From the NCBI GenBank assembly GCA_024275415.1, contig JAJRZD010000064.1, positions 63,896-95,895 on the forward strand: a stretch of 32,000 bases of DNA. The letters are read 5' to 3'. How positions within the stretch are numbered: position 1 is the first letter of the stretch; each line of letters starts with the position of its first letter. The notes beneath the pieces were generated by a model. The model ran no database searches, was not told where the DNA came from, and worked only from the letters and a program-made list of their open reading frames with translations. The DNA comes from an archaeon (GTDB lineage: Archaea > Asgardarchaeota > Thorarchaeia > Thorarchaeales > Thorarchaeaceae). Shown here one piece after another: positions 7,512 to 7,538 of this stretch. The translations under genes and the position numbers were made by a program.

Positions 7512-7538
7512 TAGGATAGGTTAACCTATCCTATAAAA
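7512..7538 (-). promoter_or_regulatory. Promoter (TATA TTTTATAG, 7538-7531) overlapped by perfect 22-bp palindrome TAGGATAGGTTAACCTATCCTA (7512-7533)
   Basis: Exact self-complementarity read from the sequence; BRE-like GGTAAT just upstream of the TATA on the minus strand; about 10 nt from the DUF4430 start. Confidence 0.8.

Follow-up and report, generated by a model that had tools for sequence, protein, structure and literature searches.

We have found a conserved DNA element at the promoter of a three-gene operon in a thorarchaeal genome, and we consider it rather likely that a repressor acts on this element to switch off a corrinoid uptake operon, with a DUF4443 protein as the binder and a corrinoid as the effector. 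The element is located in the window (the whole stretch of 32,000 nucleotides analyzed here, an archaeal sequence that encodes Nop5, fibrillarin and DUF460) and has the form of a perfect palindrome, TAGGATAGGTTAACCTATCCTA, with two 11-nt arms, 100% complementarity and no spacer. Asgard archaea are the closest prokaryotic relatives of eukaryotes. To our knowledge, the sensing and regulation of B12 in archaea are essentially unknown, and riboswitches of the bacterial type are missing. The site could define a B12 regulon in the Asgard archaea, which appear to be B12 auxotrophs reliant on their community, and site and partner gene together could reveal what a domain of unknown function with a solved structure (2P8T) does. 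The window contributes a case of operon and regulator at separate places in the genome, a measured similarity to the iron box and a link to a cobalamin cluster of Bathyarchaeota.

The palindrome and the operon behind it

Table 1. Coordinates of the operon and of its promoter elements in the window (position 1 is the first letter of the window).
Feature	Positions	Strand	Basis or remark
Perfect 22-bp palindrome, putative composite operator	7512..7533	.	TAGGATAGGTTAACCTATCCTA, exact self-complementarity
17-mer unit 1	7517..7533	+	TAGGTTAACCTATCCTA, TAGG-N9-CCTA; maximum PWM score 30.0
17-mer unit 2	7512..7528	-	Same sequence as unit 1, opposite strand, 5-bp offset
TATA box TTTTATA of the operon	7532..7538	-	Sequence; shares 2-3 nt with the palindrome
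Ribosome-binding site GAGG	7506..7509	-	7 nt 5' of the ATG
ATG of the DUF4430 gene	7498-7496	-	13 nt past the palindrome
Gene 1, anchored DUF4430 protein (transcobalamin C-terminal-like domain)	6995..7498	-	Pfam PF14478, E 1e-12
Gene 2, 256-aa secreted anchored protein	6220..6990	-	No Pfam family; conserved as part of the operon in Asgard archaea and Bathyarchaeota
Gene 3, ECF S component, CbrT-like	5595..6215	-	Weak Pfam ECF_trnsprt match

The features of the operon and its promoter are collected in Table 1. The minus-strand sequence of the promoter is aatcTTTTATAGGATAGG...CCTAccGAGGctgagtgATG (whole region, aatcTTTTATAGGATAGGTTAACCTATCCTAccGAGGctgagtgATG), and from the usual archaeal spacing between TATA box and start the transcription start is expected near 7508-7512, with a leader of about 11-13 nt. 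The initial annotation had described the sequence as exactly self-complementary, overlapping the end of the TATA box and present once in the window. All of this was confirmed: the arms pair without a mismatch, and no second copy appeared in the window even when 3 mismatches were allowed (0 matches across 100 shuffles). The sequence is also single copy genome-wide, and it is the only perfect palindrome with a half-length of at least 11 in the assembly (3,525,578 bp). By a naive estimate, however, 0.84 perfect 22-bp palindromes would be expected by chance in an assembly of this size, so the length of the palindrome alone is not significant at genome scale; what indicates a function is its conservation, described below, and not its length. 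Sites at the TATA box or just past it are repressor positions in archaeal promoters, and the window site, which overlaps the box and lies between it and the expected start, is placed in this way, as had been proposed.

Ahead of the operon, and with the same orientation, are pyrD and a pyrK-like gene, separated from it by a gap of 86 nt. Within the 3' end of the pyrK-like ORF (7588-8409, minus strand), positions 7600-7626 hold a run of eight T followed by the inverted repeat CTGTCGG-ATC-CCGACAG, which on the coding strand reads as a hairpin and then eight A.

The gene content suggests that this is probably a capture and uptake unit for vitamin B12-type compounds (corrinoids). The DUF4430 protein has a signal peptide and a C-terminal transmembrane helix, and transcobalamin-type B12 carriers have DUF4430 as their C-terminal domain (PMC4350170). 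For the S component the only significant sequence match in the PDB was chain A of 6FNP, the entry of the vitamin B12 transporter ECF-CbrT, and it was weak (E 6.2e-5, 26 bits). Besides being CbrT-like, the S component resembles ECF-CbrT of Lactobacillus delbrueckii (PMC5997447) in that the shared ECF module is encoded elsewhere. In this genome we have detected 8 hits to B12-binding domains and 3 EcfT genes outside the operon, and CbiB and CbiC were not found at a completeness of 92.9%, a combination that fits a B12 user importing the cofactor. Feedback control of corrinoid uptake, as proposed here, is what cobalamin riboswitches provide in bacteria, but here the control would act at the level of DNA and protein: a search of the window against Rfam returned 5S rRNA and one tRNA only, with no cobalamin riboswitch (RF00174 and relatives), in agreement with the earlier view that the operon is not under riboswitch control, and the leader is as short as given above.

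Two paralogous types of this operon exist in the genus, and the one in the window is type B. Its S component is 61-63% identical to those of the type B operons of two relatives (G003 and G006) and 37% identical to that of the type A operon of another (G005). The divergence of S components between the types (loci L064, L065 and L066 against window 5595-7498) hints at two substrate specificities, for example for different corrinoids.

Conservation and structure of the element

Conservation of the motif upstream of orthologous genes had been set beforehand as a test. Orthologues of the DUF4430 protein were detected in 35 of the 36 genomes of the same family at identities of 27-51%, and the element was present just 5' of the start codon in all 29 orthologous promoters that were read. 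Of 61 family genomes, at least 12, belonging to 3-4 genera, have the identical 22-mer upstream of DUF4430, as do G033 and one further named Thorarchaeota contig. The proteins concerned are only 35-50% identical, and the DUF4430 proteins encoded behind this identical 22-mer are 35-41% identical to the one of the window. Our analysis indicates that the putative operator is strongly conserved and is not a product of chance.

We have built a weight matrix (PWM) from 37 orthologous sites, and with it the unit of the element was found to be a 17-mer with the consensus TAGG-[AT][TC]AAC[CA]TAT-CCTA (that is, TAGG-WYAACMTAT-CCTA) and the core GGAT-N5-ATCC. Among the 37 sites the right half is the better conserved, ATCCTA being the best half-site (T at 94%), and the center is asymmetric, with AAC usually on the coding strand. 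In relatives the element appears as a single 17-mer (TAGGATAACATATCCTA or TAGGTCAACATATCCTA), as the overlapping 22-mer or as tandem 17-mers, these last 20 bp apart from center to center. The 22-mer of the window is newly resolved here as two overlapping units: two copies of the top-scoring 17-mer TAGGTTAACCTATCCTA lie on opposite strands with an overlap of 12 bp, which gives four TAGG/CCTA repeats with a phasing of 5 bp. Such a layout of overlapping sites would offer a natural case in which to study how two winged-helix dimers may share one operator.

The median distance from TATA box to site in relatives is 15 nt and that from site to start codon 15.5 nt, and with the former the expected transcription start falls inside the site. 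In the window and its closest operon relatives, G003 and G006, TATA box and site are 0-4 nt apart (4 nt in the type B operons of those two).

These data bear on the idea that the palindrome works as an RNA hairpin, ending transcription of the upstream pyrK-like gene or folding within a leader, or else is a chance feature, both of which we regard as very improbable. It is true that the palindrome would fold as a stem of 9-11 bp, that some related sites are located at the 3' ends of genes and that about 0.8 such palindromes are expected in a genome of this size. However, with the TATA box directly adjoining, the operon promoter should leave most of the palindrome untranscribed, and in relatives the expected start lies inside the site. 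The palindrome is not followed by a T-run, the asymmetric center with AAC on the coding strand is not something that a plain hairpin requires, and chance is excluded by the conservation of the sequence itself rather than of its pairing.

Outside the family, the four-gene set formed by these three genes and a DUF4443 gene was found, intact or rearranged, in other Asgard families, where the operon promoter carries GTAGGATA-N3-TATCCTAC or the variant GTTGGATAA-N-TTATCCAAC. At distant DUF4443 loci (in Baldr-, Hod- and Promethearchaeota, with 34-37% identity) no palindrome of the GGAT type was found in the AT-rich upstream regions.

The candidate binding protein

In almost all relatives a DUF4443 gene lies directly after that of the S component and on the same strand, as the fourth gene of the operon, which suggests an ancestral unit of DUF4430 protein, 256-aa protein, S component and regulator. 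It adjoins DUF4430 in other Asgard families as well. Of the 36 family genomes, 35 yielded an orthologue of the protein, at 55-72% identity, the best match (72%) being on JBHLQH010000015; the close relatives are named Candidatus Thorarchaeota (Asgard). In the genome analyzed here the arrangement is different. The DUF4443 gene (G000 contig C127:47408-48040) stands alone on a contig other than that of the operon, and 10 nt after its TATA box (TTTTTATTTAA) there is a perfect 17-mer (C127:47310). It is the sole DUF4443 gene of the assembly and corresponds to type A, left alone behind its promoter and putative operator. Stand-alone type A copies of the gene in G003 and G006 have degenerate sites at the same place. 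The type B operons of these two relatives have their own regulator copy and the one of the window has none, and we found no second copy or remnant downstream of the S component in the window or in the assembly. Since operon and regulator are unlinked in this genome, the operator must work in trans. A predicted regulator encoded in the operon, with the motif also on its own promoter, is the usual signature by which comparative genomics pairs a regulator with its motif, and it would include autoregulation.

The protein encoded by this gene combines a PH0730-like winged helix-turn-helix (wHTH) domain (PF22167, PH0730-like_N, E 6.5e-10) with DUF4443 itself (PF14544, E 4.3e-19). Its predicted model (pLDDT 93) has a MarR-like wHTH at the N-terminus and an alpha/beta domain at the C-terminus, and it shares this two-domain fold with PH0730 of Pyrococcus horikoshii (2P8T; phmmer 3.4e-10, Z 21.5 over 174 aligned residues), in spite of being only 24-27% identical to it. 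PH0730 is a structural-genomics protein recorded with neither a function nor a ligand nor a DNA site; we found no published work on DUF4443, and PH0730 is only listed among predicted regulators in one paper. The invariant residues of the DUF4443 domain cluster in QRD and GAT(T) motifs. We also considered the fold as a clue to the ligand, and beyond PH0730 it gave only a likeness to the insertion domain of AspRS (Z 10.5), with no ligand hint. In the same way, a search for co-variation of the recognition helix with the TAGG and TTGG variants of the motif gave no clear pattern.

The association extends to another phylum. On a contig of Bathyarchaeota the DUF4443 gene overlaps the end of an operon coding for a FecCD permease and an ABC ATPase (BtuCD type), which diverges from an operon with a phosphomutase-family gene, a class I/II aminotransferase gene and CbiB. 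We take this aminotransferase to be of the kind that includes the threonine-phosphate decarboxylase CobD. In the promoter of the transporter operon, a palindrome with the same GGAT-N5-ATCC core, GGTTGGAT-N5-ATCCAACC, begins 4 nt past the TATA box.

The initial annotation had proposed a repressor, possibly metal- or cobalt-sensing, and had compared the site with boxes of the DtxR/MntR family. In this alternative a DtxR-family metalloregulator would occupy the palindrome with two dimers, spread over four CCTA repeats, and would tie the operon to the status of cobalt, iron or manganese, which we judge to be distinctly unlikely. The resemblance to DtxR boxes that the annotation had pointed out is real and even closer than it claimed. 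The 19-bp iron box of IdeR/DtxR, TTAGGTTAGSCTAACCTAA, consists of four CCTAA repeats and binds two wHTH dimers on overlapping sites at opposite faces of the DNA (PMC8464063), and the window 17-mer is identical to the core of this box (TAGGTTAGSCTAACCTA) at 15 of 17 positions, with the same TAGG-N9-CCTA frame and the same 5-bp phasing of the repeats. The inner repeats of the IdeR box are, however, 5 bp closer together than those of the window 22-mer, and the best-conserved half-site of the motif is ATCCTA, as opposed to AACCTA. There is one DtxR-family gene in this genome (G000:C73:88647-89081), and a gene of this family was found in all 24 family genomes searched, so a phyletic test against the motif does not discriminate. 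In several genomes it is located 5-16 kb from one conserved motif site. Its product here is a two-domain protein of 144 aa, compared with the three domains of the IdeR type; the gene lies in a histidine-utilization cluster behind a different palindrome, TTAGACATGTCTAA, and no recognizable metal transporter was found beside the top-scoring sites of this genome or the 39 sites fetched from relatives. Besides, it is the DUF4443 gene that is in the operon in nearly every relative and that the motif core accompanies into Bathyarchaeota. What stands of the earlier proposal is a repressor of a B12-type operon, which the position and conservation of the putative operator support; the part that found no support is the metal sensor of the DtxR family as binder. 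We infer that the most likely binder of the palindrome is the single DUF4443 protein of the genome, and not DtxR.

The histidine-utilization cluster (G000:C73; L074:4399-10972) contains genes for a 672-aa urocanase, histidine ammonia-lyase and an amidohydrolase, and encloses the sole DtxR-family gene; the palindrome TTAGACATGTCTAA before this gene follows a TATA-like box. Two look-alikes of TTAGACATGTCTAA exist in the genome, one between rpoA subunit genes and the other before a peptidase/luciferase-like operon. Neither is located at metal genes, and the comparison neither assigned nor excluded a DtxR motif.

With the DUF4443 protein as the predicted binder, three independent lines, namely the DUF4430 protein, the CbrT match and the Bathyarchaeota cluster, point to a corrinoid as the signal. 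The DUF4443 domain would bind the corrinoid and, when B12 is plentiful, the protein would bind the operator and uptake would stop. On the model of the IdeR box, the two overlapping 17-mers could each hold one dimer, the two being placed on opposite faces of the helix. Together these dimers would cover the stretch between the 3' edge of the TATA box and the transcription start and might block the recruitment of TBP/TFB or of RNA polymerase. The protein may in addition repress its own gene through the single 17-mer at that promoter.

In its logic, and as far as analogy goes, the proposed system appears closest to that of RbkR, the archaeal wHTH regulator of riboflavin regulons that replaces the bacterial riboswitch (Rodionova et al., 2017; PMC5397151). 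In both cases an archaeal vitamin system has a wHTH protein and palindromic operators (predicted ones in our case) on the promoters of the uptake transporter and of the regulator (PMC5397151), and the RbkR regulon was likewise found by comparative genomics. RbkR differs in having a riboflavin-kinase domain and in being experimentally proven, whereas here the sensor would be the predicted DUF4443 domain and the motif is another one.

Other sites of the motif and an adjacent RNA candidate

A genome-wide scan had been suggested as a way to define a regulon, and sites of an apparent regulon were indeed found. The exact pattern TAGGNYAACNNATCCTA gave 178 matches in 60 of the 61 family genomes, compared with 2 for the reversed control. 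When one mismatch was allowed the control counts climbed nearly to those of the signal, so that the exact pattern alone is usable. In the PWM scan of this genome, 6 of the 7 top-scoring places were intergenic. Besides the operon there are two perfect 17-bp relatives, both outside the window: the one at the DUF4443 promoter and a perfect TAGGATAACATATCCTA at G000:C43:2732 (L032:2732-2748), between the genes for the PAN proteasome-ATPase and a TRM5/TYW2-type methyltransferase. This second site lies 55 nt 5' of the methyltransferase ATG and, being on the same contig, 61 kb before the window; none of the sites fetched from relatives had this PAN/TYW2 context.

Two sites with one mismatch have contexts that recur. 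One (G000:C73:83247, L074:4248-4264) is found directly after an ECF-module operon (EcfA, EcfT, a 230-aa gene and a gene of about 190 aa) and before urocanase, and is preceded by a TATA box. The context recurs in 7 loci across genera (also L080, L086, L093, L094, L109 and L111), and in four relatives a glyoxalase-like gene converges on the operon with the site in between, which is not a place for a promoter; the site could be a relic or could act as a roadblock. The other (G000:C7:12400, L075:6401-6417) follows a TrmB-family gene and lies 42 nt before the gene of a UbiE-like methyltransferase with an N-terminal Trm112-like zinc ribbon, with ABC-2 transporter genes adjoining the site. This arrangement is kept in 7 loci or genomes of 5 genera (also L082, L084, L096, L100, L104 and L114), the relatives having the site right after the TrmB-family gene and 42-118 nt before the UbiE-like one.

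Other recurrent contexts, obtained from the 39 further sites fetched from 11 relatives, are the 3' end of an RNase HII-like gene (the case also in this genome; 4 loci), the end of a zinc-ribbon gene (5 loci) and the inside of DUF61 in the Nop5-fibrillarin-DUF61-HTH_3 operon (5 loci). In this last case five relatives of two genera (g2 and g6) have a perfectly conserved 17-mer within the coding sequence of DUF61, at a distance of about 200 nt from the HTH_3 gene that follows. The window has its own Nop5/fibrillarin/DUF61/HTH_3 operon, with a convergent RNase HII gene, at 9416-13555 and 2 kb from the palindrome, and this copy is without the 17-mer. Several of the conserved sites lie between convergent genes, where a promoter-operator role makes no obvious sense; this counts against the favored reading, as does the absence of a B12 relation in the rest of the apparent regulon.

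Most of the non-transport targets have no obvious link to B12, and conserved sites are found after a TrmB-family gene, before MarR and AsnC-type genes and before an HTH_3 gene. Both facts would suit an alternative that we hold to be rather unlikely, in which the palindrome is a protein operator for another regulator (TrmB, MarR, AsnC or HTH_3), or in which the DUF4443 protein senses something other than a corrinoid and governs a broader regulon. Against the first version, none of these other regulator genes is linked to the DUF4430 operon across genomes; the DUF4443 gene alone is in the operon and bears the site on its own promoter when separated from it. Against the second, the three lines given above tie the DUF4443 family to corrinoids.

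Keeping to a DUF4443 repressor with a corrinoid effector, a broader reading can be formulated, which we offer tentatively and with somewhat less than even confidence. DUF4443 proteins would be the missing corrinoid-sensing factors of archaea (Asgard, Bathyarchaeota and Thermococcales-type), acting on a GGAT-N5-ATCC core, with double sites in Thorarchaeota that load two dimers and a regulon that reaches beyond transport. If true, these proteins would be the protein counterpart of the bacterial B12 riboswitch, Thorarchaeota would have elaborated the core into DtxR-like overlapping double sites with two dimers on opposite faces, and the regulon would extend to the ECF-module locus, to a methyltransferase and to the sites between convergent genes.

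A further element was observed next to these promoters. Directly upstream of the promoter of the DUF4430/ECF/DUF4443 operon, at least 19 Thorarchaeota loci share a conserved non-coding element, which is about 200-230 nt long and has a TATA-like box of its own. In this genome it is found outside the window, upstream of the stand-alone DUF4443 gene (L033:6060-6273; G000 C127 about 47060-47273), and it appears near positions 4700-5000 of L118, L119, L123, L149, L155, L159, L160, L163, L167, L168, L170, L176 and L177. The element gave no match to any Rfam family or tRNA. Its 3' block, GGTCCCCTTGCAGAGTTCT, is invariant, and the RNAalifold consensus structure contains 23 pairs, 9 of them with compensatory changes, which makes it a candidate for a new structured RNA tied to this locus.
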